Positions 15,654-61,698 of a stretch of 64,000 bases of DNA are shown piece by piece; position 1 is the first letter of the stretch; every line of letters begins with the position of its first letter. Both the position numbers and the translations under genes were made by a program. A model generated the notes under the pieces. The model did no database searches. It was not told the origin of the DNA and was given only the letters and a program-made list of their open reading frames with translations. Source of the stretch: Actinomycetota bacterium (lineage in GTDB: Bacteria; Actinomycetota; Acidimicrobiia; Acidimicrobiales; SZUA-35); assembly GCA_039201605.1 (NCBI GenBank), contig JBCCRO010000030.1, forward strand, positions 1,686-65,685. Reading direction: 5' to 3'.

Positions 15654-15676
15654 AGAAGAAGAATCTGAACAGTGAT

Positions 15677-15705: not shown

Positions 15706-15796
15706 TTGCTTACCAACTTTGTGTGGATCGGTTACGGTAATCGAAGTACAGTTCGTACCGACGTGGAGGATCTGCGCTCGGAAGGGGAGGTGTCGA

Positions 15797-16654: not shown

Positions 16655-16804
16655 CTTCTAGCTCGTACTGTGGCCATTTTGCGCAACACTTGACGTTTGG
16701 TTGACAAGCGTTCTCACTGGCGGCGCCCACGGCTAAGGTCCGCCGCTGGGGCAAAATGCGACGGCGGGCCTCATCAGGGTTTCCGAGATCGCAAAGGAGC
16801 GAAT

Positions 16805-17194
16805 TTGTCTCGACCACCGAGTGGCCATAGCTGCTGGGCGTACGCCTGGCCTGAATTCCGGAAGCCGACCGCCTCTGTAGGCGCTGGTGCTTGCGTAGAG
16901 ATTCGAGTTGATTCTGTAACCATCTTGATTCGAGATTCCAAGCAGAACCATCAGGCTCAGCAGCCGGTGATCGAGGTTTCGCTCGATGCTTGGTTCCAGA
17001 TTCTCGATGAGTTTGCCGGGCGACTGCCGCTCAACGTCAATGGCGAGTTGCGTATCGACAAGGCTGAAGACGGTTCGGCCACCTTCACGTCGGTCGCCAC
17101 CGGCGTGTGCCTGTCCTACACGAAGGCCGAGATCCTCGCCTTCGAGCATGGCGTGCTCAACGGGGAGTTCACCCCGGAGCTCGTCGCCGTCTGA
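16805..17194 (+). CDS. DUF397 domain protein (extended, 129 aa)
   Basis: TTG 16805 lies 6 nt after AAGGAG. FRKPTASVGAGACVEIRVDSVTILIRDSKQ matches the DUF397 hallmark (RKSS.S...CVEV...V.VRDSK). The C-terminal ...TKAEILAFEHGVLNGEFT resembles the usual DUF397 end, so the domain carries a roughly 50-aa insertion. Confidence 0.75.
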   Translation: MSRPPSGHSCWAYAWPEFRKPTASVGAGACVEIRVDSVTILIRDSKQNHQAQQPVIEVSLDAWFQILDEFAGRLPLNVNGELRIDKAEDGSATFTSVATGVCLSYTKAEILAFEHGVLNGEFTPELVAV

Positions 17195-17202
17195 TAGCTG
17201 GA

Positions 17203-22910: not shown

Positions 22911-22930
22911 TTGTCGACAATCTTGTCAAC
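22911..22930. promoter_or_regulatory. tandem GntR-type operator half-sites TTGTCGACAA-TC-TTGTCAAC upstream of ligU
   Basis: Read directly. Same TTGTnnACAA-TC-TTGTnnAC architecture as at 28206-28227. Confidence 0.5.
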
Positions 22931-22949
22931 TTTTTGGCACACTCATCCG

Positions 22950-24086
22950 GTGACCGCTGGCGTCCCCTGCATGGTGCTTCGGGGAGGCTCCTCCAAGGGT
23001 GCCTTCTTCCTCGCCGCCGACCTGCCGACCGATGAGGGCGAACGCGACGACCTGCTGTGCCGGATCATGGGCACGCCCGATGATCGACAGATCGACGGGA
23101 TCGGGGGCGCCCACCCGCTGACGTCCAAAGTGGCCGTCGTCGCCCCCGCCGCCGATCCGACCCGGGCCGACATCGACTACCTCTTCCTTCAGGTGGGAGT
23201 AGGGGAGCGAATCGTGACCGACCGCCAGAACTGCGGCAACCTGCTCGCCGCCGTCGGGCCCTTCGCCCTCGAACGCGGTCTCCTCCCGACCCGGCCGGCC
23301 CAGCCGACCTCGTCGGCCGTCGCCGACGACGGACACCGCAGCGTCCGCATCCGCATGGTCAACTCCGACTCGGTGGCAACCGCCCGCTTCCCGGTGGCCG
23401 ACGGACTCCCCGTGTACCAGGGCGACACGGCGATCGCCGGCGTCCCCGGCACCGCCGCCACCATCACCCTCGACTTCGAGGACCTGGCCGGCGGCACGGC
23501 GGGCGCCCTTCTCCCCACCGGCAACGCCGTGGACGAGGTGGCGGGCACGCCCTGCACCCTCATCGACAACGGGATGCCCGTCGTCGTGTTGGCGGCCGAG
23601 TCGGTCGGCCTCTCCGGCCACGAGCCGTGCGCCGTCCTCGAGGCCGACGACGACCTCCGTCGCCGACTGGAGGCCATCCGCCTGGAGGCGGGGCCCCGCA
23701 TGGGCCTCGGCGACGTCGCCGCCACCACCATCCCCAAGCTGACCATGGTCTCGGCTCCCCGCAGCGGCGGCCATCTCGCCACCCGGACCTTCATCCCCCA
23801 TCGCTGCCATCAGGCGATCGGTGTGCTCGGGGCGGTCTCGGTGGCGACGGCCGCCCTGCTCGACGGCGCCCCGGCCGCCCGGCACCTGGCGGCCGTCGAC
23901 GGCGACCTCGTGCGGCTCGAGCATCCCACCGGCACCTTCGACGCCGTGGTCGGGGTGATGGCCGGTCCCGACGGTGTGCGGGTGGAGCGGGCCGGCATCG
24001 TCCGCACCGCTCGCAAGCTCATGGACGGCCTGGTCTTCCCCCGCACCCCGGACGCCGTCGGTGCCGACGGCACCGCGATCGACTGA
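22950..24086 (+). CDS. ligU: PrpF-family isomerase, likely 4-oxalomesaconate tautomerase
   Basis: VPCMVLRGGSSKGAFFLAADLP N-terminal PrpF signature, in the context of the lig cluster. The track start TTG 22911 lies inside the operator, so GTG 22950 is preferred. The start remains uncertain. Confidence 0.8.
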   Translation: MTAGVPCMVLRGGSSKGAFFLAADLPTDEGERDDLLCRIMGTPDDRQIDGIGGAHPLTSKVAVVAPAADPTRADIDYLFLQVGVGERIVTDRQNCGNLLAAVGPFALERGLLPTRPAQPTSSAVADDGHRSVRIRMVNSDSVATARFPVADGLPVYQGDTAIAGVPGTAATITLDFEDLAGGTAGALLPTGNAVDEVAGTPCTLIDNGMPVVVLAAESVGLSGHEPCAVLEADDDLRRRLEAIRLEAGPRMGLGDVAATTIPKLTMVSAPRSGGHLATRTFIPHRCHQAIGVLGAVSVATAALLDGAPAARHLAAVDGDLVRLEHPTGTFDAVVGVMAGPDGVRVERAGIVRTARKLMDGLVFPRTPDAVGADGTAID

Positions 24087-24093
24087 GGCGACG

Positions 24094-25002
24094 ATGGCAT
24101 CGACGAATCCCCCGCACGAGTTCCCCCTGGAGCGCACGGTTCCCGGCCCCCGGCCGGAAGCCTCGGCACCGACGGCGTTCGACCCTCCACCTCTGGCCTG
24201 CGACGCCCACTGCCACGTGTTCGGTCCGGCCGATCGCTTCCCCTTCTCGTCGACCCGCACCTACACCCCGCCGGACTCCGGCATCGACGACTTCGGACGG
24301 CTGCAGGCCCGACTCGGTCTCCAGCGGGCGGTATTCGTCCAGGCCAGCTGTCACGGGGCCGACAACGCCGCCATGCTCGACGCCATCGATCGGGGGGCCG
24401 GCCGCTACGCCGGCGTCGCCATGATCGACCCCACCTTCACCGACGACGACCTGGCCCACCTCGACGCCAACCAGGTGCGGGGCATCCGCTTCAACTTCGT
24501 GGCCCACCTCGGGGGCGCCCCCGACCTGGACGTGTTCCGTCAGCTGGTCGGCCGGGTGGCCCCGCTCGGCTGGCACATCGTGCTCCATCTCGACGCCCGG
24601 GATTTCGCCCGCTACAGCAGCCTGCTCGATGCGCTGCCCGTGCCCTACATCATCGACCACATGGCCAGGGTCCCGGCGGCCGACGGTCTCGACCAGGAGC
24701 CGTTCCAGCGTCTCCTCGAGCGGTTCGACACCGACGAGCGTTGCTGGGTGAAGATCTCCTGCGCCGAGCGACTGACCGAGGGGCGGGTCGCCCCCTACGA
24801 CGACGTCGTCCCCTTCGCCCGGGCCCTGGTGGACTGCGCCCCCGACCGGCTTCTGTGGGGCACCGACTGGCCCCACCCCAACCTCGTCGACATGCCCGAC
24901 GAGGGCGAGCTGCTCGATCTGCTCGCCGCCTTCGTGCCCGACGAGGTCGCTCGCACCCGGATCCTGGTCGACAATCCGGCCGTGCTCTACGACTTCGATT
25001 GA
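24094..25002 (+). CDS. ligI: amidohydrolase-2 family, likely 2-pyrone-4,6-dicarboxylate lactonase
   Basis: Track ORF 23974-25002 trimmed to ATG 24094. CDAHCHVFGP (HxH), ...WGTDWPHP near the C-terminus. 302 aa. Confidence 0.8.
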   Translation: MASTNPPHEFPLERTVPGPRPEASAPTAFDPPPLACDAHCHVFGPADRFPFSSTRTYTPPDSGIDDFGRLQARLGLQRAVFVQASCHGADNAAMLDAIDRGAGRYAGVAMIDPTFTDDDLAHLDANQVRGIRFNFVAHLGGAPDLDVFRQLVGRVAPLGWHIVLHLDARDFARYSSLLDALPVPYIIDHMARVPAADGLDQEPFQRLLERFDTDERCWVKISCAERLTEGRVAPYDDVVPFARALVDCAPDRLLWGTDWPHPNLVDMPDEGELLDLLAAFVPDEVARTRILVDNPAVLYDFD

Positions 25003-25079
25003 GGGGCCACAGCCGGTCGTCGGTCGCCGTGCACCGGTGGTCTGCGATGTAGCGCTCCCCGGCCGGAGCGATCAACAAC

Positions 25080-25112
25080 ATTGTCAACAATGGCGCCCAG
25101 GATTGTTGACAC
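25080..25112. promoter_or_regulatory. inverted pair of GntR-type sites ATTGTCAACAAT ... ATTGTTGACAC upstream of the GntR gene
   Basis: 25080-25091 and 25102-25112. TGTCAACAAT and ATTGTTGACA are reverse complements. 70-100 bp upstream of ATG 25180. Confidence 0.5.
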
Positions 25113-25179
25113 GGTTGTCGTCGGGCGGGAAAGTGGGCATGCGTCACAACCGGCGCAAGAGCCGCAAAACTCGAGGGTG

Positions 25180-25836
25180 ATGGCAGATACGACGCACGCA
25201 CAGCCGACGGTGACCGACGCCCTGCGGGCGGACATCCTCGCCGGTCGGTTCGAGCCCGGGGATCGTCTGCTCGAGGTGGCACTGTCGGAGCACTACGCCG
25301 TCGGCCGCGCCGCCATCCGCTCGGCCCTGGTCGAGCTCACCACCGAAGGGCTGGTCCAGCGGCAGACCAATCGGGGTGCCGTCGTCCGCCGCATCTCGAT
25401 CGAAGAGGCCATCCAGATCAACGAGGCCCGCGCCGCCCTCGAGAGCCTGATCGCGGCCAAGGCGGCCAGCATCGCCACCGCCGAGGAGCGGGTGGAGCTG
25501 CAGGGGATCATCGATCGGATGCGGGCGGCCGTCGCCGAGGACCGGGGCGGCGACTATTCCGATCTCAACGCTCTTCTCCACCGACGGCTTCGGGAGATGG
25601 GCGGCCATGTCGTTGCGGCCGAGCTGGTCGACAACCTGCGCAACCGGGCCGCCCACCACCAGTACCGGTTGGCCCTGATGCCCGGGCGTCCCGGTCAGTC
25701 GTTGGAGCAGCACGCCTCGATCGTCGACGCCGTGGTCGCCGGCGATGAGGACGGGGCGGCCGAGGCCATGCGGGTCCACCTGCTGTCGGTCATCGATGTG
25801 CTGCGCCGCTGGGGCGACGCCTCCGGCATCGGTTGA
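25180..25836 (+). CDS. GntR-family transcriptional regulator with FCD (FadR C-terminal) domain
   Basis: Trimmed to ATG 25180. wHTH LLEVALSEHYAVGRAAIRSALVELTTEGLV. FCD-like INEARAALESLIA ... HASIVDAVVAGD. Confidence 0.85.
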   Translation: MADTTHAQPTVTDALRADILAGRFEPGDRLLEVALSEHYAVGRAAIRSALVELTTEGLVQRQTNRGAVVRRISIEEAIQINEARAALESLIAAKAASIATAEERVELQGIIDRMRAAVAEDRGGDYSDLNALLHRRLREMGGHVVAAELVDNLRNRAAHHQYRLALMPGRPGQSLEQHASIVDAVVAGDEDGAAEAMRVHLLSVIDVLRRWGDASGIG

Positions 25837-25875
25837 CACGTCGATTGCCGACCGCCCCTGCAGTAGCGTCGGGCC

Positions 25876-26397
25876 ATGGGCTACGTGATCCGTGAGCCGG
25901 TCGAAGGCGACGCCGCTGAGATGGGCTCGGTCCACGTCCGGGCCTGGCAGGCCGCCTACCGGGGGATCATGCCCGACGACTACCTCGACGCCCTGTCGGC
26001 GGACGAGCGGGCGGCGATGTGGCGGGAGGGTTTGGCCAATCCCCCTCGGGAGCGGTTCGCCCGCCGGGCGGTCGAGGCCGAGGACGGTCGATTGGTCGGC
26101 TTCTGCGTCGTCGGTCCGGAGGGGGCCGACGAGGGGGCGGCGGGCGGCGAGCTCTACGCCATCAATCTCGACCCCGACCACTGGGGCACCGGGGCCGGTC
26201 CCGCCCTCATCGATGCCGGGCTGCGGGCCCTGGTCGACGCCGGGTTCGGCGAGGCCGTCCTGTGGGTGGCGCCCGGCAACGCCCGCGCCCGCCGCTTCTA
26301 CGAACGGGAGGGTTGGGTGGCCGACGGCGCCGAGCGGACCGACGAGGTGCTCGGCGTGGTCGTCGAGGAGGTGCGGTACCGGCGGTCGTTGCCGTAG
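25876..26397 (+). CDS. GNAT-family N-acetyltransferase
   Basis: 173 aa. LYAINLDPDHWGTGAGPALI (acetyl-CoA loop Q/RxxGxG/A) and ARRFYEREGW. Confidence 0.85.
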   Translation: MGYVIREPVEGDAAEMGSVHVRAWQAAYRGIMPDDYLDALSADERAAMWREGLANPPRERFARRAVEAEDGRLVGFCVVGPEGADEGAAGGELYAINLDPDHWGTGAGPALIDAGLRALVDAGFGEAVLWVAPGNARARRFYEREGWVADGAERTDEVLGVVVEEVRYRRSLP

Positions 26398-26448
26398 GGG
26401 TCGCCGGGCCCGCCGTCGGGCCGACCGGGTGTCACGGGGTCGGCCGGT

Positions 26449-27150
26449 TCAGTCGAGGTAGACGACGCCCAGATCGTCGAGCGTGGCCCGCAGGCTGTAG
26501 AGGTCGAGCCCGAGTTCACCCGCCTGCAGCTTGGTCCGCGTCGCCTCCTCCTTGGCCAGCCGGGCCTGCGACTGCTCGAGGCCCCAGGCCGCCTCGGCCC
26601 GGGGCACCACCACCACGCCGTCGTCATCGGCGCAGACGACATCACCGGGGTGGATGATCACCCCGTCGATCGAGATCGGCACGTTGACCGAACCGGGGGT
26701 GGCCTTGACCGTCCCCTGGCACGATACGTGGCGGGTCCACACCGGGAAGCCCATCTGACGGAGATCGAGGGTGTCGCGCACGCCTGCGTCCATCACCAGC
26801 GCCCGCACCCCCCGGGCCTGGAGCGAGGTGGCGATCAGGTCGCCGAACATGCCGTGGGTGCTCGGCGTCGTGGTCGCCACCACCAGCACGTCGCCCGGCC
26901 GGCAGACCTCGATGGCGGCGTGGATCATGATGTTGTCGCCCGGGTGGCTGAGCACCGTGACGGCGGTGCCGGCGACGCGGACGTCCCGCTGGATCGGCGC
27001 CACGTCGGGTCCGAGGTAGCCGCGTCGACCGATGGCCTCGTGCACGGTGGCGGTGCCGATCGGGGCCAACCCGTCGACGAGGTCGAGCGGGGTGCGGTCG
27101 ATCGAACGGACGACGACGTGGAGGTCGGGGGCGGAGGTGGGGTCGGTCAT
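26449..27150 (-). CDS. ligK: RraA-like class II aldolase, likely 4-carboxy-4-hydroxy-2-oxoadipate aldolase/oxaloacetate decarboxylase
   Basis: TATVHEAIGRRGYL, HPGDNIMIHAAIE, GDVVCADDDGVVVVP. ATGA overlap with the ligJ stop. Confidence 0.85.
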   Translation of the reverse strand: MTDPTSAPDLHVVVRSIDRTPLDLVDGLAPIGTATVHEAIGRRGYLGPDVAPIQRDVRVAGTAVTVLSHPGDNIMIHAAIEVCRPGDVLVVATTTPSTHGMFGDLIATSLQARGVRALVMDAGVRDTLDLRQMGFPVWTRHVSCQGTVKATPGSVNVPISIDGVIIHPGDVVCADDDGVVVVPRAEAAWGLEQSQARLAKEEATRTKLQAGELGLDLYSLRATLDDLGVVYLD

Positions 27151-28157
27151 GGGAGCACCAATCGGGGGAAGACGCGTCGGGCGTTGTGGTGGAAGATCTT
27201 GTCCCGAGCCTCGTCGTCGAGGTCGGCATGATCAAGGTAGGCCTTGGTGTCGTCCCAGTACCGACCGGTCTCGGCGTCCACCCCACGGACGGCCCCCACC
27301 ATCTCCGAGGCGAAGAGGATGTTGTCGGTCGGCACCACGTCGAGGAGGAGATCGATGCCGGGCTGGTGGTAGACGCAGGTGTCGAACCAGATGTGGTCGA
27401 GCAGGCCGTCGAAGTCCCACCCCTTGTCCTGGGCCATGCCCTTGAACCGGCCCCAGTGGTAGGGGACCGCTCCGCCGCCGTGGGGGATGATCCACCGCAG
27501 GCCGGGGAAGTCGGCCATGAAGCCCGAGCTGAGCGCCTGCATGAACGCGGTGGTGTCGGCGCCGAGGTAGTGGGAGCCGGTGGTGAAGAAGTGGTCGTTG
27601 CAGGCGGCGGACACGTGGATCATGCCGGGGACGTCGAGCTCGCACATCGTCTCCCACAGCGGCCACCAGTAGCGGTCGTGGAGGGGTGGACCGGTCCAGA
27701 AGCCCCCGGTGGGGTCGGGATTGACGTTGCAGCCGATGAAGCCGAGCTCCTCGACGCAGCGACGGAGCTCGTGCACCGAGCCGTCGATGGCGACGCCGGG
27801 CGACTGGGGGAGCTGGCACACCGGGGCGAAGTTGTCGGGGTAGAGGTCGCACACCCGGCGGATCAGTTCGTTCTGATGCTCGGTCCAGAACAGCGAGGTG
27901 TGCTCGTTGCCGATGTGGTGGGCCATCCACGACGCCCGGGGCGAGAAGATCGTGAGATCGGTGCCCCGGTCGCGCTGCAGCTTGAGCTGGGCCCCCTCCA
28001 GCGACTGGCGGATCTCGTCATCGGTGACGGCCATGGCGCCCTTGGTGCCGACGTGGGCCGGATCGGCGGCAACCGCCGCCTTCTGGGCCTCGCGCCAATC
28101 GGCGACGCCGTCGGGCGTGGTGGTGTAGTGCCCGTGGCAGTCGATGATCGGGGTCAC
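27147..28157 (-). CDS. ligJ: amidohydrolase-2 family, likely 4-oxalomesaconate hydratase
   Basis: MTPIIDCHGHYTTTP start and ...IIPHGGGAVPYHWGRF. 336 aa. Sits in the lig cluster. Confidence 0.8.
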   Translation of the reverse strand: MTPIIDCHGHYTTTPDGVADWREAQKAAVAADPAHVGTKGAMAVTDDEIRQSLEGAQLKLQRDRGTDLTIFSPRASWMAHHIGNEHTSLFWTEHQNELIRRVCDLYPDNFAPVCQLPQSPGVAIDGSVHELRRCVEELGFIGCNVNPDPTGGFWTGPPLHDRYWWPLWETMCELDVPGMIHVSAACNDHFFTTGSHYLGADTTAFMQALSSGFMADFPGLRWIIPHGGGAVPYHWGRFKGMAQDKGWDFDGLLDHIWFDTCVYHQPGIDLLLDVVPTDNILFASEMVGAVRGVDAETGRYWDDTKAYLDHADLDDEARDKIFHHNARRVFPRLVLP

Positions 28158-28205
28158 GTGCCGGTCTTCTCCGTCTACTCGCTCGATTTGCGGCTAGGGT
28201 ACCGA

Positions 28206-28242
28206 TTGTTCACAATCTTGTGCACAACAAATCTTGTGTACC
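28206..28242. promoter_or_regulatory. three GntR-type sites TTGTTCACAA-TC-TTGTGCACAA-N6-TTGTGTACC in the divergent ligJK / pobA-ligABC spacer
   Basis: 28206-28215, 28218-28227 (perfect palindrome) and 28234-28242, read directly. Confidence 0.55.
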
Positions 28243-28321
28243 GCAGAGTGATCGTCAAGCATGGCCGATCTCGGGCTCCGGGGCCGGTGGGACGATTCGG
28301 GGTGAACGGGAGGACCATCGC

Positions 28322-31745
<3,424 letters not shown>

Positions 31746-34296: not shown

Positions 34297-34454
34297 CCGC
34301 CCATCCTTCCAGGAATCTCCACGCCGATTCGGCGGACCGGGAACACCGTCGGCACCCGATGCGTTCCCATTGGCCTCCGGCCTGGCCCTGCGGCGGCGCC
34401 GGTCGGGGGAACGTGCCAGGATCATCGGCAGCAACAAAGGGGAAGGGTGATCAC

Positions 34455-36458
34455 GTGAGCACCACTGAGAAGCCGAGCATCGTCGAGCCCGCATTGCCCG
34501 ACGGTCGGTACGCCTGGCACAAGCTGGTCGATCTCGACGAGCTGCCCGAGGGTCGGGTCACCACGGTCAACATCGGCCACGAGAGCCTGGCGGTCACCAA
34601 CACCGCCGAGGGCGGCTACGGCTGCCTGGCCAACGCCTGCCCCCACCAGGGCGGCCCCCTCGGTGAGGGCTCGATCGAGAAGGGGTGGCTCCGCTGCCCG
34701 TGGCACGGCTACGACTACTCGCCAAAGAACGGCCAACCCCCGGGCGCCCACGCCGACAACCCCGGCGCCTACCGGACCGAGACGCGCCCCGACGGGGTGT
34801 ACGTGGCCCTGCCGGTGGAGGTGGCCCGGCCCCGCAGCGTCTCCGACGTGATGGTGGAGACGATGGTCAACTGGGGCGTCACCCACGTGTTCGGCATGGT
34901 GGGCCACTCCAACCTGGGCTTCGCCGACGCCATGCGGGTGGCGGAGCAGCGGGGTGAGCTGTCCTACATCGGGATCCGCCACGAGGGGGCGGCGTCGTTC
35001 GCCGCCACCGCCTACGGCAAGCTCACCGGGCGGCTGGCCGGGTGTTTCGCCATCGCCGGGCCGGGGTCGACCAACCTGATGACCGGCCTGTACGACGCCA
35101 AGACCGACCGGGCTCCGGTGCTGGCGCTCTGTGGCCAGGTGCCGTCCAAGCAGCGGGGCCGCGGCGCCTTCCAGGACACCGACCTCCACGCCGCCTTCCA
35201 CGACGTGGCGCGCTACTCCGAGACGGTGCAGGCCGGCTCCGATCACGCCGAGCTGATGACCCTGGCCTGCAAGACGGCGATCGTGGAGCGAGACGTGGCC
35301 CACCTGGTCTTCCCCGACGAGGTGCAGGAGCTGCCGGCCGCAGAGGGAGCCAAGGCCGGTGGACCGGCCGGTCGGACCGGGGAGCGGCGCATCGCACCGC
35401 CGGCCGACGCTCTGGAGGCGGCGGTGGCGGCCATGACCGCGAGCGCCCGGCCGATCATCATCGTCGGCAACGGTGCCCGCGACGGCATCGCCGAGATCAT
35501 CGCCCTGGCCGAGCGGCTCGACGCCCCGGTGCTCACCACCTTCAAGGGCAAGGGGCTCATCTCCGACCACCATCGCCTGGCCGGTGGTGTGCTCGGCCGG
35601 TCGGGAACGCCGGTGGCGAGCTGGTTCATGAACGAGAGCGATCTGATCGTCACCTTCGGTGTGTCGTTCGCCAATCACACCGGCATCGCCGACTACAAGC
35701 CGATCGTGCAGGTCGACTTCGACCCGATGGCCCTCGGCCGCTTCCACCCGGTCACCGTCCCGGTGCAGGGTCACGTCGGCGTGACGGCCCAGGCCATGCT
35801 CGACGCCTGCGATGTGGTGAGCCGCGACGGCGCCGCCACCGAGGTGGCCGAGCGGTGGGAGATCTGGCGGGCGGAGAAGGCCAGCCGCCGCCTGGACGAT
35901 CACGGTGAGGGGATCAACGCCGCCGCCCTGTTCGCCGCCCTGAGCGAGTGCGTTCCGGCCGATGCGATCATGCCGGTCGACGTCGGCAACAACACCTATT
36001 CCTTCGGCCGCTACTTCGAGGTGAAGGATCAGGCGGTCATCATGTCGGGCTATCTCGGCTCGATCGGGTTCGCCCTCCCGGCGGCCATGGGAGCGTGGGC
36101 GGCGACGCAGAGCCAGCCCGACTTCGCCGGTCGGCCCGTGGTGTCGATCTCGGGCGACGGCGGCCTCGGGCAGTACGCCATGGAGATGACGACGGCGGTG
36201 AAGTACGGGATGAACATCACCCACGTCGTCATGAACAACAGCGAGCTGGGCAAGATCTCGAAGGAGCAGCGGGCCGCCGACTTCGACGTGTGGCAGACCT
36301 CGCTCCACAACCCGTCGTTCGCCGCGTTCGCCGAGCTGTGCGGGGCCAAGGGCATCCGGGTCACCGAGCTCGACGCCCTGCCCGCCGCCATCGGCGAGGC
36401 GGTGGCCCACGACGGTCCGTGCCTGGTCGAGGTCATCACCGACGCCCTGCTGGTGTAG
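34455..36458 (+). CDS. fusion protein: N-terminal Rieske [2Fe-2S] domain + pyruvate-oxidase/acetolactate-synthase-like thiamine-diphosphate enzyme, 667 aa
   Basis: GTG 34455 follows AAAGGGGAAGGG. Rieske ligands CPHQGGPL-x-CPWHGYDY in the first ~110 aa. Then TPP-enzyme modules: N-terminal Pyr domain HVFGMVGHSNLGF...IGIRHEGAASFAA..GPGSTNL, a central domain, and the C-terminal PP motif GDGGLGQYAMEMTTAVKYGMNITHVVMNN. Confidence 0.85.
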   Translation: MSTTEKPSIVEPALPDGRYAWHKLVDLDELPEGRVTTVNIGHESLAVTNTAEGGYGCLANACPHQGGPLGEGSIEKGWLRCPWHGYDYSPKNGQPPGAHADNPGAYRTETRPDGVYVALPVEVARPRSVSDVMVETMVNWGVTHVFGMVGHSNLGFADAMRVAEQRGELSYIGIRHEGAASFAATAYGKLTGRLAGCFAIAGPGSTNLMTGLYDAKTDRAPVLALCGQVPSKQRGRGAFQDTDLHAAFHDVARYSETVQAGSDHAELMTLACKTAIVERDVAHLVFPDEVQELPAAEGAKAGGPAGRTGERRIAPPADALEAAVAAMTASARPIIIVGNGARDGIAEIIALAERLDAPVLTTFKGKGLISDHHRLAGGVLGRSGTPVASWFMNESDLIVTFGVSFANHTGIADYKPIVQVDFDPMALGRFHPVTVPVQGHVGVTAQAMLDACDVVSRDGAATEVAERWEIWRAEKASRRLDDHGEGINAAALFAALSECVPADAIMPVDVGNNTYSFGRYFEVKDQAVIMSGYLGSIGFALPAAMGAWAATQSQPDFAGRPVVSISGDGGLGQYAMEMTTAVKYGMNITHVVMNNSELGKISKEQRAADFDVWQTSLHNPSFAAFAELCGAKGIRVTELDALPAAIGEAVAHDGPCLVEVITDALLV

Positions 36459-36485: not shown

Positions 36486-38585
36486 CTAGCCCTCGCAGCC
36501 GATCGGGTCGTGGCCGATCGTGACGAGCAACAGGTCGCCGGACCGGGTGATGTGGCGGACCGGTCGATCGAGTTCCACCAGCTCCTCGCCGGTCCCCGAT
36601 CGGAGGAGGAGGCCCTCCGGCACGGCGACGGCGATCACGTCACCGTCGACGAGATGGCGGTCGGAGGGGCCGCCGCCGTAGCCCTCGGCGGCTCGGATCC
36701 GCTCGGGGGCGTCGTCGTCGCCGGTCACCACCAGGAGCTCGATGGTGCTCGGCCGGCCGGGTGGCGTCACGGCGAAGACGAGGCCATCGTCGGTGGCGCC
36801 GAGGAACCCGTTGCCGCCCTGACCGTTGACCGTCAGCGCCATCGACCACAGTTCCACGGCCGGGTCGTCGGCCCGCACCACGGTCAGCTCGCGGGTGCTC
36901 ACCGCCGTCTCGGGAAGATCGTTGCGCACGTCGTAGACGATCAGGTCACCGTCGGGGTCGTTCGGGTTCGGGGCCAGTGAGGCCGAGCGCAGGTCCTCCT
37001 GGGTCCACCGGGGTAGGCCGTCGTCGAGTCCGTACACGGTGAGGCGGGCGTTGGGGCCTTGGGTGGAGCCGAAGAGGGTGAGGGCATGGCGACGCCCGAC
37101 CTGGAGCCAGGGCCCGAGTGACGACTGGCTGCCGAAGGCGTCGTACACGTCGTCCCACGGCAGGGGGCTGGTGTCGGTGATGCCACCGTCGGCGCCTTCG
37201 ATCCGCAGCACGGGCTCGGCGCCGTCGTGGAACCAGACCAGAACCGGCAGCTCATCGTTGACCGGGGTGGAGGCGATGGGAGCGGGGTCGAAGACGCCCG
37301 CCGGTGGGCCGAGGTCGACCAGGTCTCCGTCGGCGTCGATCCGGGCCCGGTAGGGCTCGTAGTCGTCGAGCGCAAGGCCGCCGTCGACGTCGAACAACGC
37401 TCCGCCGTCGACGGCGACGGCCGGGCGCAGGACCACGGCCTCCACGTGGTGCTGCCACGCCACGGTGCCGTCGCTCATCCGTAGTGCCGTGACGCTGGGG
37501 AGCACGGTGTCGAGCCCCGGGTCGACCACCAGGACGGTGTCGGCGTCGATGGCGAGGGGCGGCCGGTCGAACGACGGGAGATCGCGCGACCACACCTCGC
37601 TGCCGGTGGCCAGTGACCACGCCACCAGCGTGGGGGCGGTGGCCACGACGCAACCCGTGCCATCGTGTATCTCGGGCGGCAAGGGGTTGTAGACGGGTTG
37701 GGCTGGGTCGAGCACGAGCCCCGGCGGCTGACGGTCCATGGCGTCGTCCAAGCTGGCTTGAGCGGCCTGGGCGTAGGGCGTGGTGCCGGCCACGGTCGGG
37801 TCGCTGAGGGCGGCCGGCGCTGGGTCGTCGACGATGAAGAACGAGGCGACGGCGAAGAAGCCGCCGGCGACCAGGATGAGCCGGTGATGGTTCGGGAGGG
37901 GTTCCGCAGCCGGATCGCCGGTGGTGGCCGTCGGCAGCACGCGGTTGGCCTTGCGGAGCACCAGGAGGACGCGGACCGCCAGCCACAGGGCGACGGCGAT
38001 CACGACCACGACCTCGCGGCCGGCGCCGCCGACCTGGACGAGGAACAGGAGGATCATCGGCCCGATGACGCCGGCTATCAGGATGTGGCCCGCCAGGCGT
38101 TCACTGCGTTGCCGGAGCTGCTCTTCGCCGACGGTGGTGGCCTGACCGGCGATGCCGGTGAGGATCGAGCGGATGAGAAGCACCAGCACGGCCCAGCCGA
38201 CCAGCGCGGCCACGATGCCGAAGCCGCCGTCTCGCCCCGTCAGCGGGCTCGAATCCACCGCTTGGCCGACGCCTGCGGCGCCGATGGCCGCCAGCTGTTC
38301 GGCCAGGGCGAAGGTCGCCAGGACATAGGCCGCCCATCGGGCTGAGGCGTAGGAGCGGGCGACGGGCCGCAGTCGGGCGGTGGCCCAGGCGATGAGCAGG
38401 AAGCCGAGCACGTCGGGGAGGAGATCGAAGCCGTTGATCCACAGGTCGAGGCCGACCAAGAGGAAGCCCCAGAACATCTGGTTGAACGACCCGTTGCCCC
38501 GGGCCCCGACCGGATCCACCGGCCCGCTCGTCGGCGCGCTCGTCGACGGTTGCCGTACGTCGTCCTCGATCGGTGTGTCGCCCAT
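36486..38585 (-). CDS. polytopic membrane protein (about 6-7 TM) with C-terminal PQQ-like beta-propeller, 699 aa
   Basis: N-terminal hydrophobic helices (FWGFLLVGLDLWINGFDLL, VLGFLLIAWA, ...), then repeats with G..VW / G.V.W blades (TGSEVWSRDL, DGTVAWQHHV, GLPRWTQEDL). 79-nt gap after the NADK-like gene. Confidence 0.75.
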   Translation of the reverse strand: MGDTPIEDDVRQPSTSAPTSGPVDPVGARGNGSFNQMFWGFLLVGLDLWINGFDLLPDVLGFLLIAWATARLRPVARSYASARWAAYVLATFALAEQLAAIGAAGVGQAVDSSPLTGRDGGFGIVAALVGWAVLVLLIRSILTGIAGQATTVGEEQLRQRSERLAGHILIAGVIGPMILLFLVQVGGAGREVVVVIAVALWLAVRVLLVLRKANRVLPTATTGDPAAEPLPNHHRLILVAGGFFAVASFFIVDDPAPAALSDPTVAGTTPYAQAAQASLDDAMDRQPPGLVLDPAQPVYNPLPPEIHDGTGCVVATAPTLVAWSLATGSEVWSRDLPSFDRPPLAIDADTVLVVDPGLDTVLPSVTALRMSDGTVAWQHHVEAVVLRPAVAVDGGALFDVDGGLALDDYEPYRARIDADGDLVDLGPPAGVFDPAPIASTPVNDELPVLVWFHDGAEPVLRIEGADGGITDTSPLPWDDVYDAFGSQSSLGPWLQVGRRHALTLFGSTQGPNARLTVYGLDDGLPRWTQEDLRSASLAPNPNDPDGDLIVYDVRNDLPETAVSTRELTVVRADDPAVELWSMALTVNGQGGNGFLGATDDGLVFAVTPPGRPSTIELLVVTGDDDAPERIRAAEGYGGGPSDRHLVDGDVIAVAVPEGLLLRSGTGEELVELDRPVRHITRSGDLLLVTIGHDPIGCEG

Positions 38586-38664
38586 GGTCCCTCGCCTCGC
38601 CTCGCCTCCATGATCGCTCGACGGCGCCGGGGATGGGCCTCACCTTGGCCGTGGTGGCGACCGG

Positions 38665-39573
38665 TCACAGGAGAAGGAGGCTGCGAGCCGATCGGCGGAT
38701 CCGCAGGCGTTCGCCCCACCCGATCTCCAGTCGGTCGCTCTCGATGCCGTCGCCGAAGGCCACCAGCCGGTCGGACTCGCTCTCGATCACCAGCTCGGCG
38801 CCGTCGACCAGGAGGCCGGCGGTGAGGTCGGTGCCGGAGCTTGGCGAGGGCCAGGCCTCCCGCACGAACCAGGCCAGGTCGGTCGAGGTGGTCTCGGGGA
38901 GGGCCCAGTCGAGCCGCCGCTCCCGGTGCACCGATCGACACCAGCTGGTGGCGCCGGTGGCGGTGCCCACCAGCACCCCGGACGACGACTGTCGCTCGGC
39001 CGCCCGGTCGAGGACGAGGCTGTAGCGGGCCGACTGGTGGCTGGGGTGGCCGATGTAGACCTCGTTGAGGGCCCGCAGGCTGCGCCCGTCGCCGGTGGCG
39101 AGCTCGACCAGCGAGCGGAGCTCGGCCGTACCGGTGCACGGCTCGTCGGGTGCCGAGGCGGCCGCCACCCGTCGGAGGATGGCGGCCACCCGGTCGGGCC
39201 GGTGGCGGACGAGCACGCCGGCGTTGCGGGTGGGCTCCGGGTCGACGCCGACCACCGGTTGGCCCGAGAGGTACTTGGCCACGTTGGCCACCAGGCCGTC
39301 CTGGCCCACGGCGATGACCACGTCCTCCGGGCCGAACAGCCATCGGTCGAGGTCGGCCCGATCGAGGGAGGCCCGCCGCCAGTCGACGGGGACGGCGGCG
39401 GCCACCATCTGCAGGGCCTCCTGCTGGTGGGCGTGACTGCGATCGAGCTCGTCCAGGCTCCGACCCCGCCCGGAGAGGACGAACTCGACCTGGCTTCGGG
39501 AGCCGTGCCGGGCCACTAGGTGGTCGTACTCCGTGGGTCGGCTCACCACGAGCGCCCGGGGGGCTACGGTCAT
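38665..39573 (-). CDS. NAD-kinase-fold (ATP-NAD kinase family-like) protein, 302 aa
   Basis: IAVGQDGLVANV (cf. GGDGT), ALNEVYIGH (cf. NE motif), SSGVLVGTATGATSW (cf. G-rich STPTGSTAY motif). The start overlaps the SPFH stop by 4 nt. Confidence 0.75.
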   Translation of the reverse strand: MTVAPRALVVSRPTEYDHLVARHGSRSQVEFVLSGRGRSLDELDRSHAHQQEALQMVAAAVPVDWRRASLDRADLDRWLFGPEDVVIAVGQDGLVANVAKYLSGQPVVGVDPEPTRNAGVLVRHRPDRVAAILRRVAAASAPDEPCTGTAELRSLVELATGDGRSLRALNEVYIGHPSHQSARYSLVLDRAAERQSSSGVLVGTATGATSWCRSVHRERRLDWALPETTSTDLAWFVREAWPSPSSGTDLTAGLLVDGAELVIESESDRLVAFGDGIESDRLEIGWGERLRIRRSARSLLLL

Positions 39574-40640
39574 CGCTCGTCGCCGGGCTCGAGCGCCCGC
39601 CGCCCCTCGTCGTCGGCGCCGCCGCCCAGGCCGCTGTCGCTCACGGCGGCACCCAGGAAGCGGGCAGCCAGTGAGCTGACCAGGTCGGGGCTGAGGACCA
39701 GGGTGCCGATGTCCGGCAGGCCGCCGGCCAGGTCCCCCACCGCCAGCGACAGCAGCACGGCGTCGTCGGCGTCGCCGTAGGCCGCCACCCGCAGCCGCTC
39801 GGCCTCGGCCTTGGCCGCGCCGAGGTCGCGCACCGTGGCCGCCTGGGCCCGACCCCGCACCTCGGTGGCGTCGGCCTCGGCCGCCACCCGGATGCGGACG
39901 GTCTCGGCCTCGTCGGTCACCCGACGCTGTTCGTTGGCCCCGGTCTGGGCCACGAGCTGCTCCTCGCGGATGGCCAATTCGATCCGGTTCTGCAGCTCGT
40001 TCTCGCTGATGCCGCGCTCCTGTTCGACGGCCAGGGCCCGCCGCTCGAACATGGCCCGATCGGCCTCCTGCTGCAGCTGTTCGCGGACCGGAGTCTGCAG
40101 CGCCTGCTCCATGTCGGTTTCCGGTCGGACGGCGACGACACGGACGTCGACGATCTCCAGCCCGGTCTCGATGAGCCGATCGTCGGCCCGGAGGCCGGCG
40201 CCGAGCGTGCCCCGCAGCGCCGGCACACCCTGGCCAAGCACCTCGGTGAGCGACAGGCTGGCCAGGACCGCCGTGGCGTGCTGCTGGGCCAGCTCGGTCA
40301 GCAGGCCCCCGATCTGCTCCAGCGGCGTGCGCACCCAGGCGCCGGTGGTGTTGTCGATGGTGAAGTCGATCCGCTCGGCGGCGGCGGAGGGGCGAGCAAT
40401 CCGGTAGGTGATCGAGGCCTGCACCGAGATCTCCTGGAAGTCGCTCGTGCGGTCCCGGAAGATCAGCGGCAGCTCGCGCTCGTCGATCGGGAGCTCGCTG
40501 ATCGACGAGGTCCGGGGGACGAACCAGAAGGACTGGCCGATGCCGTCGTTGACCACCTGGCCGTTGCGGAGGCGGCGGACGTAGGTGGTCGACGAGGAGC
40601 GGAGGTGGCTGACGATCGGTCGTCGGGTGATGGTGGCCAT
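39570..40640 (-). CDS. SPFH/band-7 domain protein without an obvious TM segment, 356 aa
   Basis: SPFH core (FWFVPRTSSISELPIDERELPLIFRDRTSDFQEISVQASITYRI...GLEIVDVRVVAVRP) followed by a coiled-coil A/E/R-rich region. Confidence 0.85.
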   Translation of the reverse strand: MATITRRPIVSHLRSSSTTYVRRLRNGQVVNDGIGQSFWFVPRTSSISELPIDERELPLIFRDRTSDFQEISVQASITYRIARPSAAAERIDFTIDNTTGAWVRTPLEQIGGLLTELAQQHATAVLASLSLTEVLGQGVPALRGTLGAGLRADDRLIETGLEIVDVRVVAVRPETDMEQALQTPVREQLQQEADRAMFERRALAVEQERGISENELQNRIELAIREEQLVAQTGANEQRRVTDEAETVRIRVAAEADATEVRGRAQAATVRDLGAAKAEAERLRVAAYGDADDAVLLSLAVGDLAGGLPDIGTLVLSPDLVSSLAARFLGAAVSDSGLGGGADDEGRRALEPGDER

Positions 40641-40680
40641 GAGGATGGTCCTCTCGGGTGCTGATGGTCGCTTCGATTAA

Positions 40681-40723
40681 TCGTCAGTTTGACGAATAGT
40701 TGATTTATCGTCAACATGACGAT
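40681..40723. promoter_or_regulatory. two palindromes TCGTCA-GTT-TGACGA (40681-40695) and ATCGTCA-ACA-TGACGAT (40707-40723) in the divergent spacer: candidate NrtR-type operators
   Basis: Read directly. Arms are perfect (6 and 7 bp) and centres are 27 bp apart. The spacer is locally AT-richer. CGATTAATCG (40674-40683) is an additional perfect palindrome. Confidence 0.45.
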
Positions 40724-40752
40724 TGGCACGTCGGGTTGGGTAGCCTCGGGTC

Positions 40753-41463
40753 GTGGGTCCGTTCTCGTCGATCGCCGTCACCGTGGATCTGGTGGTGTTC
40801 ACCATCCGGACCGAACGCCTGCACGTGCTGACGGTGACGAGGGGGGTCGAGCCTTTCGAGGGTCGCTTGGCGCTGCCCGGTGGTTTCGTCCTGCCCGAGG
40901 AAGACCTCGACCAGGCGGCCGGGCGGGAGCTGGCCGAGGAGACCGGCCTCGGCCGGGGCGACGGCCTCCATCTGGAGCAGCTCGCCACCTATGGCACCCC
41001 GGGCCGGGATCCCCGCCAACGGGTGGTGACCGTGGCCTATCTGGCCCTGGCCGCCGCCCTCGGCGACCCGACGGCGGGCACCGATGCGGCGGAGGCCCAG
41101 TGGCTGCCGGTCGAAGACGTCCTGGTGGGCGGCCTCGCCTTCGACCACGATCGCATCCTCGACGACGGCCTGGATCGGGCCCGGGCCAAGCTGGAGTACA
41201 CCACGCTCGCCACCACGTTCTGCCCGCCGACGTTCACCGTGGCCGACCTCCGTCAGGTCTACGAGGCGGTGTGGGGGGTGTCGATCGACCCCCGCAACTT
41301 CCACCGCAAGGTCGTGGCCAGCGAGGGGTTCGTCGAGGAGACCGGGGAGCGGACGGCCGAGGGGCGAGGGCGACCAGCGATGTTGTTCCGGGCCGGGCCG
41401 GCCACGGCACTGCATCCGCCGATCGTCCGCCAGGGCTCGGTTGCTCGGGAGCTCGGCGGGTAG
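40753..41463 (+). CDS. Nudix hydrolase domain + C-terminal winged-helix: NrtR-like (Nudix-related) transcriptional regulator
   Basis: Intact Nudix box GGFVLPEEDLDQAAGRELAEETGL (GX5EX7REUXEEXGU). The C-terminal FTVADLRQVYEAVWGVSIDPRNFHRKV is typical of the NrtR wHTH domain. GTG start. Confidence 0.8.
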   Translation: MGPFSSIAVTVDLVVFTIRTERLHVLTVTRGVEPFEGRLALPGGFVLPEEDLDQAAGRELAEETGLGRGDGLHLEQLATYGTPGRDPRQRVVTVAYLALAAALGDPTAGTDAAEAQWLPVEDVLVGGLAFDHDRILDDGLDRARAKLEYTTLATTFCPPTFTVADLRQVYEAVWGVSIDPRNFHRKVVASEGFVEETGERTAEGRGRPAMLFRAGPATALHPPIVRQGSVARELGG

Positions 41464-43747: not shown

Positions 43748-43897
43748 CCGAGGGCCGTGGCCCTGCGGGCGCCGGGCCGCCGCCCGGCGGATCGATCGAA
43801 TTCGCTCGACCGGTCGGGCCGCGCCCTCCAGCATGGCTCGCAGGCCCGGGGCGGATGCGCCGCCCTCATCGAGCGACGCGGAGAGGAGGGCCTGACC

Positions 43898-44200
43898 ATG
43901 GTCGACGTACGACACGACGGTGACCGGGAGCGCGTGCGCTCTTGGGCCACGGATCTGGAAGAGAACACGATGCAGCAGGCCCTACGGTCGGCCCGATGCG
44001 ACGCCGTGTCGGGTCCGATCGCGCTGATGCCCGACGCCCACTGGGGCATGGGGGCCACCGTCGGCTCGGTGATTCCCACCGAGTCGGCCATCATCCCGGC
44101 CGCGGTCGGTATCGACATCGGCTGCGGGGAGAACCAGGCCGACCTGGTCCGCATCGAGCGTCGTCTGGAGGCCATCGTCAACTACAAGGGCGTGTCGTAG
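43898..44200 (+). pseudogene. rtcB: internally deleted remnant of RNA ligase rtcB (100 codons, in frame)
   Basis: ATG 43898 follows GAGAGGAGGG. ...PIALMPDAHWGMGATVGSVIPTESAIIPAAVGIDIGCG matches the RtcB N-terminal metal-site motifs, but the ORF ends about 25 aa later with ...RLEAIVNYKGVS, which resembles the RtcB C-terminal ...VKG end. Full RtcB proteins are several-fold longer. Confidence 0.6.
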
Positions 44201-55930: not shown

Positions 55931-57622
55931 TCACGGCCCGGCCGCCACCGTCACCACACGCGTCACCCGATCATCGCCCGCCTCCAGGCCGATCTCGATC
56001 GTCCCCGGCGACGACGGGGTGATCTCGACGGCAGCCCCGGTGAACGACTCGCCGTTGACCGTCCAGGCGCCATCCTCGACGCCGGGCGCGGTGAACACCG
56101 CGGCCTGCCCGACGGTCACCGCCGCCGGACCGACGATGACAACCGACGCCGCATCGGGCGCGGTGGCGGTGAACACCAGCTCGTCGGCGCCGTCGCCCTG
56201 GGTGGCCGTGACCTCGACCCAGCCCTCGGTGCCGGGGGTGACGGCGATCGTGGTGCCGACGAACTCGTCGCCGCCCACGGTCCAGGTGGCCGGGGCCCCG
56301 TCGGTGGTGGTGAAGGCCACCTCCTGGCCGACCGGGCCGGTGGTGGGGCCGGTGATGGCGCCGTCGCCGCCGAGCACCTGGGTGGCGAGGAGGGCCAGGC
56401 CGCCGACCACGGCCACCGTCACCACCCCGAGCACGACGAGGAGGGGCAGGCGGGACCGACGGCCCGGCGCCGACACCGCGCCCTGGAACGAGTCGGTGGG
56501 CGCCTGCGGCGACGCCGCATACCCGGCGGGGGCACCGTAGGCCGACGTCGTCGGCGGGTGGGCCTGACCGGCCGGTGTGTACTGGGCCGGGGCGGGACCG
56601 GGAGCCGGGGTGGAGGCCGGGTTGGGCGCGTCCGAGTGGCGGGCCGCCGTGGTCGGCTGGGCGGCGAATCGGTCCGGCACCACCGGGGGCGGCATCGAGC
56701 CCAGCGAGCCGGGGGCCGACGGCGGTGCCGCCACCGTCTGATAGGAGGCGTCGGCTCGGGGCCGCACGGGGGCGCCGCCGGGGGTGGTCAGCGCCGTGCT
56801 GAGCGAGCCGAACCAGGTGTCGATGTCGCGATGGCGAACGTCGGACCGGACGGCGAGACCGCGCTGGAGCTCGGTGGCCAGGGGGCCGGTGGCGGCCATG
56901 GCGTCGTCGGCGAAGGCCGACTGCCCGAGGGCGATCAGGGGCTGGGGCTGGGTGCCGCTGACGGCGGCCACGATCAGGGCCGAGGCGGCGTAGACGTCGG
57001 CCGAGGCGCTGACCGAAGCGTCGCCCCGGAACTGTTCGGGGGCGCCGTAGCCCGGGGTGCCGCCCGCCATCGTGGCGTGGGCGGCGTGGGGGTCGACCAC
57101 CTTGGCCAGACCGAAGTCGGCCACGGCCAACTCCTCGTCGGGCCCGAGCACGCCGGCGATGACCGTCGAGCGGGCCGACTCCGCACCCCGGTTGACCCGG
57201 ATGAGGTAGTTGCTCGGCTTGAGGTCGCGGTGGACCATCCCGGCCCGGTGGATGTGGCCGGTGCAGATGGCGATGGCCCGGGCCAGCTCCACCGCCTCGG
57301 GCACGGTGAGGCGGCGGCCAAGGCCGTCGAGCCGGTCGGCCAGCGTCCCCCGCTCGCAGTACTCCATCACGAAGTAGGGACGTCCGTTGTCCTCGCCGAT
57401 GTCGTAGACCGTGACGAGGCCCGGGGTCTGGAGCTGGCGCATGACGCGGGCTTCGGACACGAAGCGTTCGCGGAGCTCGGCGTCGCCGGCCATGTTGTCG
57501 GCCAGTACTTTGATCGCCACCCAGGCCTGCAGGTCGGGGTCGTGGGCCAGGTAGACGGTGGCGAATCCGCCCGTCCCCAGCACGCTGTGCACCTGATATC
57601 GACCGATTCGATCCGGGATCAC
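55931..57622 (-). CDS. Hanks-type Ser/Thr protein kinase with Pro-rich linker, one TM and two extracellular Ig/PKD-like repeats
   Basis: GTGGFATVYLA...VAIKVL, HRDLKPSNYL, DFGLAK, GTPGYGAPEQ. TM LPLLVVLGVVTVAVVGGLALLA. The C-terminus repeats VGQ..FT....WTV.G..F.G. GTG start. Confidence 0.9.
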   Translation of the reverse strand: MIPDRIGRYQVHSVLGTGGFATVYLAHDPDLQAWVAIKVLADNMAGDAELRERFVSEARVMRQLQTPGLVTVYDIGEDNGRPYFVMEYCERGTLADRLDGLGRRLTVPEAVELARAIAICTGHIHRAGMVHRDLKPSNYLIRVNRGAESARSTVIAGVLGPDEELAVADFGLAKVVDPHAAHATMAGGTPGYGAPEQFRGDASVSASADVYAASALIVAAVSGTQPQPLIALGQSAFADDAMAATGPLATELQRGLAVRSDVRHRDIDTWFGSLSTALTTPGGAPVRPRADASYQTVAAPPSAPGSLGSMPPPVVPDRFAAQPTTAARHSDAPNPASTPAPGPAPAQYTPAGQAHPPTTSAYGAPAGYAASPQAPTDSFQGAVSAPGRRSRLPLLVVLGVVTVAVVGGLALLATQVLGGDGAITGPTTGPVGQEVAFTTTDGAPATWTVGGDEFVGTTIAVTPGTEGWVEVTATQGDGADELVFTATAPDAASVVIVGPAAVTVGQAAVFTAPGVEDGAWTVNGESFTGAAVEITPSSPGTIEIGLEAGDDRVTRVVTVAAGP

Positions 57623-57733
57623 GCCACGCCCTCCCGTCGCCCCCGGCGCAGTCTAGGGCAGGGTGTCCCCGACCTGGGGGCCGATGCCATACCGCACCGG
57701 TACTTTCACCCTGGGCCGGATAGTCACCCGTCG

Positions 57734-61534: not shown

Positions 61535-61698
61535 GCGGTCCACCCCCCGGATGTATCGATCGTCGGTCGAAGCCGTCGCTGGGCATACCGTAGCGGTCGG
61601 CCGCGAGCCGTCGAGCCGGTTGGGTGTCCCAGCCTGTCGCCGTGGCGGGGGCTTCCGGCCCTTCGGGATGCAGCGAGGATGGTGGATGACCGACACCC

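Follow-up and report, generated by a model that had tools for sequence, protein, structure and literature searches.

In 2008, a survey of NrtR repressors listed a two-gene operon, nrtX-nrtY, among the NrtR regulons and marked its pathway with a '?' (Rodionov et al. 2008, Nucleic Acids Research 36:2047, PMC2330246, Table 1). The entries belong to the groups Actinobacteria-2b and Gammaproteo-1a. They read nrtR2<#>nrtX-nrtY for Kineococcus and Frankia, '#nrtR2; #nrtX-nrtY', that is unlinked, for Streptomyces, and 'Proteus mirabilis: nrtR<#>nrtX-nrtY', with a further entry for Hahella; all carry the '?'. The main text of that paper assigns no protein families, mechanism or function to nrtX or nrtY, and the two names were not found in later papers in our literature search. 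Here we analysed a locus within a 64,000-nucleotide stretch of contig JBCCRO010000030.1 (assembly GCA_039201605.1, an uncultured actinobacterium with a high GC content), called the window throughout, in which an NrtR gene lies divergent from a gene pair encoding an SPFH protein and an NAD-kinase-fold protein (NAD, nicotinamide adenine dinucleotide). This locus is a new member of the regulon noted in 2008.

The layouts of that table were reproduced in our data: a metagenome-assembled genome of the Frankiaceae carries the nrtR<>nrtX-nrtY divergon, Streptomyces has an unlinked pair preceded by operators, and P. mirabilis shows NrtR<>SPFH-kinase. From these correspondences nrtX can be identified with high confidence as the SPFH gene and nrtY as the kinase gene. 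A first-pass annotation made from the letters of the window had taken the gene combination for one not described before, but it is listed by Rodionov et al., and the P. mirabilis locus has exactly such gene content. On balance we think it probable, by a modest margin of confidence, that the unit as a whole is an NrtR-repressed nrtXY operon encoding an NAD(H) kinase that is derepressed by ADP-ribose and organised by an SPFH assembly.

Layout and conservation of the nrtR/nrtX-nrtY unit

In the window, nrtR (40753..41463, plus strand, 236 amino acids) is separated by a divergent spacer of 112 bp from nrtX (39570..40640, minus strand, 356 amino acids). The nrtX stop and the start of nrtY (38665..39573, minus strand, 302 amino acids) share four nucleotides (ATGA), and after a gap of 79 nt a gene for a polytopic membrane protein with a PQQ-like beta-propeller follows (36486..38585, minus strand, 699 amino acids). 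The GC content at third codon positions is 0.89-0.94 for all four open reading frames (ORFs), as in real genes of a genome of about 70% GC, and hydropathy predicted no transmembrane (TM) segment in the SPFH, kinase and NrtR proteins. The coordinates, ATGA overlap, 79-nt gap and 112-bp spacer given by the first-pass annotation were all reproduced, as were its intact Nudix box, its GQDGL in place of GGDGT and its SPFH protein lacking a membrane anchor.

To describe conservation, we scanned one genome per species, took the 80 best loci from other species and searched these with the window proteins by tblastn. The scan used alignment A1, so that these loci are biased towards Actinomycetota; other phyla were reached through a plasmid collection and one extra protein search. 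nrtX lies directly upstream of nrtY in 79 of the 80 loci, the remaining one being cut by a contig end. In 50 loci the two genes share a 4-nt overlap, and in most of the others they are within 5 nt of each other. A divergent NrtR gene accompanies the pair in 53 loci, and none was found close by in Streptomyces, Kitasatospora, Aeromicrobium and some further loci. Clustering of all flanking ORFs revealed no further conserved family in more than 13 of the 80 loci. That is, the conserved unit consists of three genes, encoding NrtR, SPFH protein and kinase, and not of four.

The unit is widespread. The kinase-like family comprises more than 7,000 proteins in a word-indexed search and 184 clusters at 50% identity with E <= 1e-30, and at least 580 species representatives (one genome per species) match two peptide patterns specific to the subfamily, at about 50-60% identity. 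Acidimicrobiia, Kribbella, Nocardioides, Streptomyces, Kitasatospora, Lentzea, Actinoplanes and Glycomyces are represented among the 80 loci. The triad as such was found in Actinomycetota, Bacillota, Alpha- and Gammaproteobacteria, and Treponema has the SPFH-kinase pair alone. In Lachnospiraceae, Band_7, kinase and NrtR genes all lie on one strand, while the products of the divergon in Providencia and Rhizobium etli are annotated as 'NUDIX', 'SPFH/band 7' and 'ATP-NAD kinase PpnK-type' or 'sugar kinase'. A chromosome record of P. mirabilis has NrtR at 3765-3127 (minus strand), divergent from the SPFH gene (3969-4967) and the kinase gene (5001-5882). Acinetobacter also carries the unit, and it resides on plasmids or chromids of Rhizobium, Acinetobacter, Roseomonas and Streptomyces; E. 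coli genomes gave no match to the Providencia locus. The unit is spread over at least four phyla and dozens of genera, and the association reaches far beyond close relatives, the point on which the first reading of this DNA had made its proposal depend.

Some copies have particular neighbours. The Aeromicrobium pair sits behind a gene with an RDD domain. In Gammaproteobacteria, nrtR<>nrtX-nrtY adjoins tet(J) or tetR(H)-tet(H), as in P. mirabilis (locus L092, 3127-7828) and on an Acinetobacter lwoffii plasmid (locus L093, 4094-8841). In Pasteurella, Actinobacillus and Psychrobacter, small plasmids with tet(H) (H81-H85) hold only the 3' part of nrtY, corresponding to query residues ~166-287. This fragment looks like a hitch-hiking remnant that marks the origin of a mobilised tetracycline-resistance segment.

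The NrtR regulator and its predicted operators

The window regulator was correctly called NrtR-like at first sight: by its domains, it belongs to the NrtR family. It matches Pfam NUDIX (PF00293, 2.1e-18) and NrtR_WHD (PF21906, 1.2e-16), and in a search of PDB sequences its residues 4-221 match Shewanella NrtR (3gz5) at 1.9e-29. Judged by its sequence score, it is a family member and not an equivalog of the NCBIfam model NF050029, 'ADPR responsive transcriptional repressor', against which it scored 131 bits at a cut-off of 400. Its Nudix box, GFVLPEEDLDQAAGRELAEETGL, fits the signature GX5EX7REUXEEXGU exactly, and the box is intact in 53 of the 63 NrtR orthologues tested, including most of the actinobacterial ones. 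Two NrtRs, from Synechocystis and Shewanella, were freed from DNA by ADP-ribose in vitro, and for NrtRs with intact Nudix signatures hydrolysis of the ligand has been raised as a possibility (PMC2330246). With its intact box, the window NrtR may likewise hydrolyse its own ligand in addition to sensing it.

The divergent spacer contains two candidate NrtR operators. The one distal to nrtX (40708..40722, TCGTCAACATGACGA) is a perfect 6-3-6 palindrome with a GT-N7-AC core, and the proximal one (40681..40695, TCGTCAGTTTGACGA) has the palindrome TCGTCA-N3-TGACGA. Both conform to the GT-N7-AC core that has been reported for most NrtR groups (PMC2330246). Two exact copies of TCGTCA-N3-TGACGA lie in the spacer, and the rest of the 64 kb has none; the sequence was absent from 100 shuffled sequences (0 expected). 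Since this palindrome is confined to the spacer, and since the SPFH-kinase pair and NrtR operators recur across dozens of genera, the SPFH-kinase-NrtR arrangement is not a chance juxtaposition.

Across the loci we searched for ATCGTCA-N3-TGACGAT with up to three mismatches. At least one such operator lies upstream of nrtX in 73 of the 80 loci, an 88-fold enrichment over the rest of these loci, and the pairs of Streptomyces and Kitasatospora carry operators although no nrtR adjoins them. Sixty loci have a two-site arrangement upstream of the SPFH gene. The sites are 33-34 bp apart, except in the two closest relatives, where the distance is 27 bp as it is in the window. In all 60, the distal operator includes TTGAC, and a hexamer nANNNT lies 16-19 nt downstream of it, within the proximal site. 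The window equivalents on the minus strand are the -35-like TTGACG (40709-40714, inside the distal operator) and, 17 nt away, the -10-like CAAACT (40686-40691, inside the proximal operator). We infer from this conservation that the nrtX promoter lies at TTGACG/CAAACT; the proposal is based on the conserved spacing of TTGAC and nANNNT because a simple generic sigma-70 scan found no promoter in the region. If the predicted operators are bound as they are placed, NrtR would occlude the nrtX promoter.

The putative kinase NrtY and its SPFH partner NrtX

Structure prediction of NrtY, proposed as a check when the locus was first read, gave a confident AlphaFold2 model (predicted local distance difference test, pLDDT, 90.8) with the two-domain fold of NAD kinases (NADKs). 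Searched with Foldseek, NAD kinases made up 50 of the 50 matches listed for this model. The four best were human mitochondrial NADK2 (top match 7r4l, E 1e-17, TM-score 0.70), while canonical NADK structures such as 1u0r of M. tuberculosis reached TM-scores of 0.57-0.65. A profile of the NrtY family searched against the PDB matched NADK2 at 2e-22 and the best canonical NADK at 1.6e-8. At an identity of about 18%, the alignment with the NADK2 profile spans positions 5-123 and 159-245, including the N-terminal helical segment and the REP motif. The EMKA dimerisation insert, described as animal-specific (PMC9245612), is absent from NrtY and appears as a gap of ~25 residues in the alignment.

The motifs of NrtY (GQDGL, ALNE and SSSG..GTATGATSW) agree with this placement. 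D92 corresponds to D161 of NADK2 and preserves the catalytic aspartate of GGDG, and W211 corresponds to the nicotinamide-stacking W319 of NADK2 and is invariant or nearly so in the family. The NE motif (N170) is nearly invariant, and SSSG and TGxGxTGW are conserved. A serine and a tryptophan that replace the aspartate and tyrosine of PpnK are the hallmark of C5orf33 homologues (PMC3535332). Sequence and model together mark NrtY as specifically NADK2-like and separate from the canonical NADK family.

Streptomyces also has a canonical ppnK, SCO1781 (PMC8981147), so that NrtY is an additional paralogue. That NrtY might simply be the sole housekeeping ppnK, the outcome that would have refuted the first reading, can be rejected at the level of the family, which has an NADK2-type profile and coexists with SCO1781 in Streptomyces. 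Within the 64 kb of the window, none of the 44 ORFs scanned against Pfam contains an NAD_kinase domain. An actinobacterial nadK2 paralogue has been described (PMC6675116), which could be neither equated with nor separated from NrtY.

NrtX matches Pfam Band_7 (PF01145, 2.5e-13). Its AlphaFold2 model (pLDDT 82.6) consists of a beta-rich N-terminus, the SPFH domain and a single helix of 116 residues (175-290), and the N-terminus is modelled as beta strands with a pLDDT of 89-94. The top Foldseek matches are HflK/C, stomatin, erlin, prohibitin, flotillin, QmcA and the major vault protein (MVP). Neither a TM segment nor a hairpin anchor was predicted in NrtX, and the hydropathy maximum of its orthologues is borderline at most (<=1.65). 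An NfeD partner gene accompanies the SPFH1, 2 and 5 subfamilies (PMC2636767), and none recurs beside nrtX in the 80 loci, as judged by the clustering of flanking ORFs. In its model, NrtX has the architecture of cage-forming SPFH proteins. Most likely it would oligomerise, and the assembly would bind NrtY, hold it in position or gate it, probably at the membrane.

A few family members give hints of a physical link of NrtX to membranes and to NrtY. In the set P0131, P0132 and P0179, some NrtY homologues bear C-terminal extensions with one or several predicted TM segments, and the metagenomic protein P0179 is a single NrtX-NrtY fusion, which lacks the first strand of NrtY and is possibly an artefact. 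A second apparent fusion, P0199, was discarded as evidence of coupling, being a frameshifted read-through.

Put together, these observations suggest the following course of events. NrtR would bind both operators, covering the -35 and -10 elements of the nrtX promoter, and would repress nrtXY and probably its own gene, because the same operators lie 31-72 nt upstream of the nrtR start. When NAD+ is consumed, an ADP-ribose-type ligand would build up and NrtR would leave the DNA. The translationally coupled genes nrtX and nrtY would then be expressed in coupled amounts, NrtX would form an oligomeric platform for NrtY, and NrtY, a putative kinase, would most likely phosphorylate NAD(H) to NADP(H). 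In sum, pyridine nucleotide would be shifted towards NADP(H) when the cell is under NAD-consuming or oxidative stress. In this respect the initial idea of an ADP-ribose/NAD-responsive module with a non-classical output has held up well, as the predicted targets of NrtR are an SPFH protein and an NAD-kinase-fold protein.

Several points weigh against this proposal. The identification of nrtX and nrtY with the SPFH and kinase genes relies on matching organisms and architecture. NrtY has no match in Pfam, including NAD_kinase, and reaches 24 bits with the NCBIfam NAD kinase model NF003406, whose cut-off is 211. The second glycine of GGDG is altered family-wide to Q, R, P or L, with G also seen, while the aspartate and the flanking glycines are kept; because these variants run through the family, GQDGL is a family trait and not the mark of a decayed copy, and the phosphate donor or the substrate may therefore differ from those of canonical NADKs. 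Our literature search returned no biochemical data on any member of the NrtY family. Contact between NrtX and NrtY is suggested by the operon structure and by the possibly artefactual P0179. The nANNNT criterion applied to the -10 element is permissive, and part of it already follows from the operator consensus. Finally, Aeromicrobium and a few other loci hold the pair with neither NrtR nor operators, and regulation by NrtR is therefore not universal.

Some of these points favour a different substrate under the same regulation, an explanation that we regard as possible but rather unlikely. Here, NrtY would act on ADP-ribose, nicotinic acid adenine dinucleotide, another dinucleotide or a membrane lipid, and NrtX would serve as a membrane platform. 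The NADK fold is also that of lipid kinases in the DAGK/PFK-like superfamily, for example diacylglycerol and sphingosine kinases. The family-wide replacement of GGDG, NrtY scores below all curated NADK thresholds, a partner from a family of membrane-microdomain proteins and the NrtY variants with TM tails would all fit. However, no lipid kinase appeared among the 50 best structural matches, and the match to the NADK2 profile takes in the specific N-terminal helices and the REP motif. The nicotinamide-stacking tryptophan and the NE motif are conserved, and the regulator would sense a metabolite derived from NAD. We retain NAD(H) as the probable substrate.

A bolder version of the NAD(H) kinase proposal joins NrtX and NrtY in one structure, and we offer it tentatively, as the less likely form. 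NrtX would be an anchorless ring or cage that binds or encloses NrtY, ADP-ribose-induced conversion of NAD(H) to NADP(H) would take place at a defined site, and NrtY would be the closest bacterial relative of the eukaryotic 'mito-clade' of NAD kinases (NADK2/NADK3), for which PMC6675116 did not settle the prokaryotic origin. If true, this would add a new pair of SPFH protein and client, the client being a nucleotide kinase (compare vault and PARP4), and would give a lead on the origin of mitochondrial NADP synthesis.

Downstream gene, surroundings and comparison with known systems

The gene downstream of nrtY had been counted as part of the system. Its product matches Pfam PQQ_2 (3.8e-8) over residues 308-403 only. 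About five hydrophobic segments stand out clearly in the region 88-254, and the stretches that precede them are less hydrophobic. The gene was found in none of the 80 other loci. It is missing from the closest relatives (L005-L007), even where their kinase is 62-67% identical, and was found only on the organism's own contigs (L002-L004). It is therefore a lineage-specific local neighbour outside the conserved unit, and a four-gene module is rejected, the clustering of flanking ORFs having given no fourth conserved family. In the window organism it may still be co-transcribed with nrtXY. That in this lineage the four genes form one system, with the TM/PQQ protein as anchor or partner for the anchorless SPFH protein, is improbable in our view. 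The gene has the same strand as nrtXY, the 79-nt gap shows no terminator-like site, and three metagenomic contigs carry exactly this arrangement, but these are of the same organism (99-100% identity) and so do not count as independent evidence. Moreover, PQQ_2 propellers are common in this genome, with another at 318-2720, and the TM/PQQ gene comes with a purine-rich ribosome-binding region of its own.

A role in phage defence or abortive infection, with NAD(P) manipulated at the membrane, had also been suggested; it is very improbable, and we reject it as the main explanation. In its favour, defence systems commonly act through NAD depletion, SPFH proteins act at membranes, the unit has moved horizontally to some extent (witness its plasmids and chromids) and the Nudix domain weakly matches PDC-S07 in PADLOC (E 0.0037). 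Against it, PADLOC had no match for the PQQ protein or for NrtX and NrtY, 50,697 phage records contain no homologue, the literature search revealed no link of the unit to defence, the distribution over at least 580 species representatives at about 50-60% identity is typical of vertical inheritance, the flanks vary and contain no defence genes that recur, and the genes around the unit in the window are metabolic. A metabolite repressor is the only sensor of the module, and a kinase that makes NADP would not be a depleting effector. The NrtR-controlled NAD(H) kinase remains our preferred explanation.

Turning to the surroundings, a lig-type cluster for aromatic ring cleavage at 22911-29935 (PrpF, two Amidohydro_2 proteins, a GntR/FCD regulator, an RraA-like aldolase, an FAD monooxygenase and a LigA subunit) marks them as ordinary catabolic genes. 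The ORF at 34359-36458 (plus), which follows the TM/PQQ gene directly on its downstream side and has the opposite orientation, encodes a 699-amino-acid protein with an unusual domain combination, an N-terminal Rieske [2Fe-2S] domain fused to a complete thiamine-diphosphate enzyme (TPP_enzyme_N, M and C). On the other side, the ORF at 43757-44200 (plus, 147 amino acids) matches only the first 51 of the 426 positions of the RtcB RNA ligase profile and appears to be a truncated RtcB remnant; the same short gene is also called on other contigs of the organism. At 14700-17200, the GC content is 0.63-0.66, compared with ~0.71 elsewhere, and the genes encode a LuxR-type regulator, an Xre-HTH protein with DUF5753 and a DUF397 protein, an actinobacterial Xre/DUF397 pairing; this patch may be a horizontal acquisition. 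At 318-5842 (minus), a second PQQ_2 propeller protein, which has a VWD domain, adjoins an RHS/YD-shell protein. At 55931-61696 (minus), a STAND-like protein of 1320 amino acids (adenylate/guanylate cyclase-AAA_16-TPR) lies beside a Ser/Thr kinase and an Hsp70-like protein. Scanning the window for Rfam families and for tRNA genes gave no match.

The nrtR/nrtX-nrtY unit has been flagged as NrtR-regulated since 2008 and is widespread. Some of its hosts can be cultured, among them Streptomyces, P. mirabilis and Rhizobium etli, which makes it directly accessible to experiment. To the 2008 entry, the present analysis adds the placement of nrtY as a putative NADK2-type kinase and of nrtX as a predicted anchorless cage-type SPFH protein, the architecture of a promoter with two predicted operators and the spread over four phyla. 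The unit joins ADP-ribose sensing, a kinase of the mitochondrial NADK2 type and SPFH assemblies, which are topics so far unconnected in bacteria. If the preferred reading is true, many bacteria would have a regulated second route to NADP(H), and SPFH cages would have a client that is not a protease. To our knowledge, the bacterial SPFH clients so far are FtsH- and NfeD-type proteases.

How, then, does the locus compare with its closest counterparts? As in the nrtR/nrtX-nrtY regulon of 2008, predicted sites of an NrtR paralogue precede a two-gene operon. The locus differs from that regulon in its host, which is new and probably belongs to the Acidimicrobiia, and in operators that are 27 bp apart rather than at the usual 33-34 bp. 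With the classical NrtR regulons (nadABC, pncAB, prs-nadV and niaP) it has in common the architecture of the regulator, the palindromic GT-N7-AC operator, the divergon and a likely autoregulation. The predicted target, however, is not NAD synthesis, salvage or uptake but an NAD-kinase homologue with a scaffold protein, and the Nudix box of this type of NrtR is mostly intact.

The best match of NrtY in sequence and fold is human NADK2/C5orf33 (7r4j, 7n29) together with plant NADK3 (PMC3535332, PMC9245612). NrtY shares with NADK2 the N-terminal helical segment, the catalytic aspartate, the NE motif, the Ser/Trp signature and the REP motif. Unlike NADK2, it has G[Q/R/P/L]DG and lacks the EMKA insert, and it is bacterial, coupled in an operon to an SPFH gene and known here from sequence and model. 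The canonical PpnK/NadK enzymes (M. tuberculosis 1u0r, S. coelicolor SCO1781) have the same two-domain fold and the same catalytic aspartate, whereas NrtY forms a family of its own, which coexists with the housekeeping enzyme in Streptomyces.

NrtX resembles HflK/C-FtsH, QmcA-YbbJ, stomatin, flotillin, prohibitin, erlin and MVP-PARP4 in its predicted SPFH domain followed by a very long helix, and the cage-forming SPFH assemblies in its operon partnership with an enzyme. It differs from the cage-forming systems in having no TM segment or hairpin and no NfeD nearby, and in a partner that is a putative nucleotide kinase and not a protease. The vault protein MVP likewise has no membrane anchor, and its SPFH domain binds NAD+, ADP and ADP-ribose (PMC12280208), a parallel to NrtX that we draw as an analogy only.

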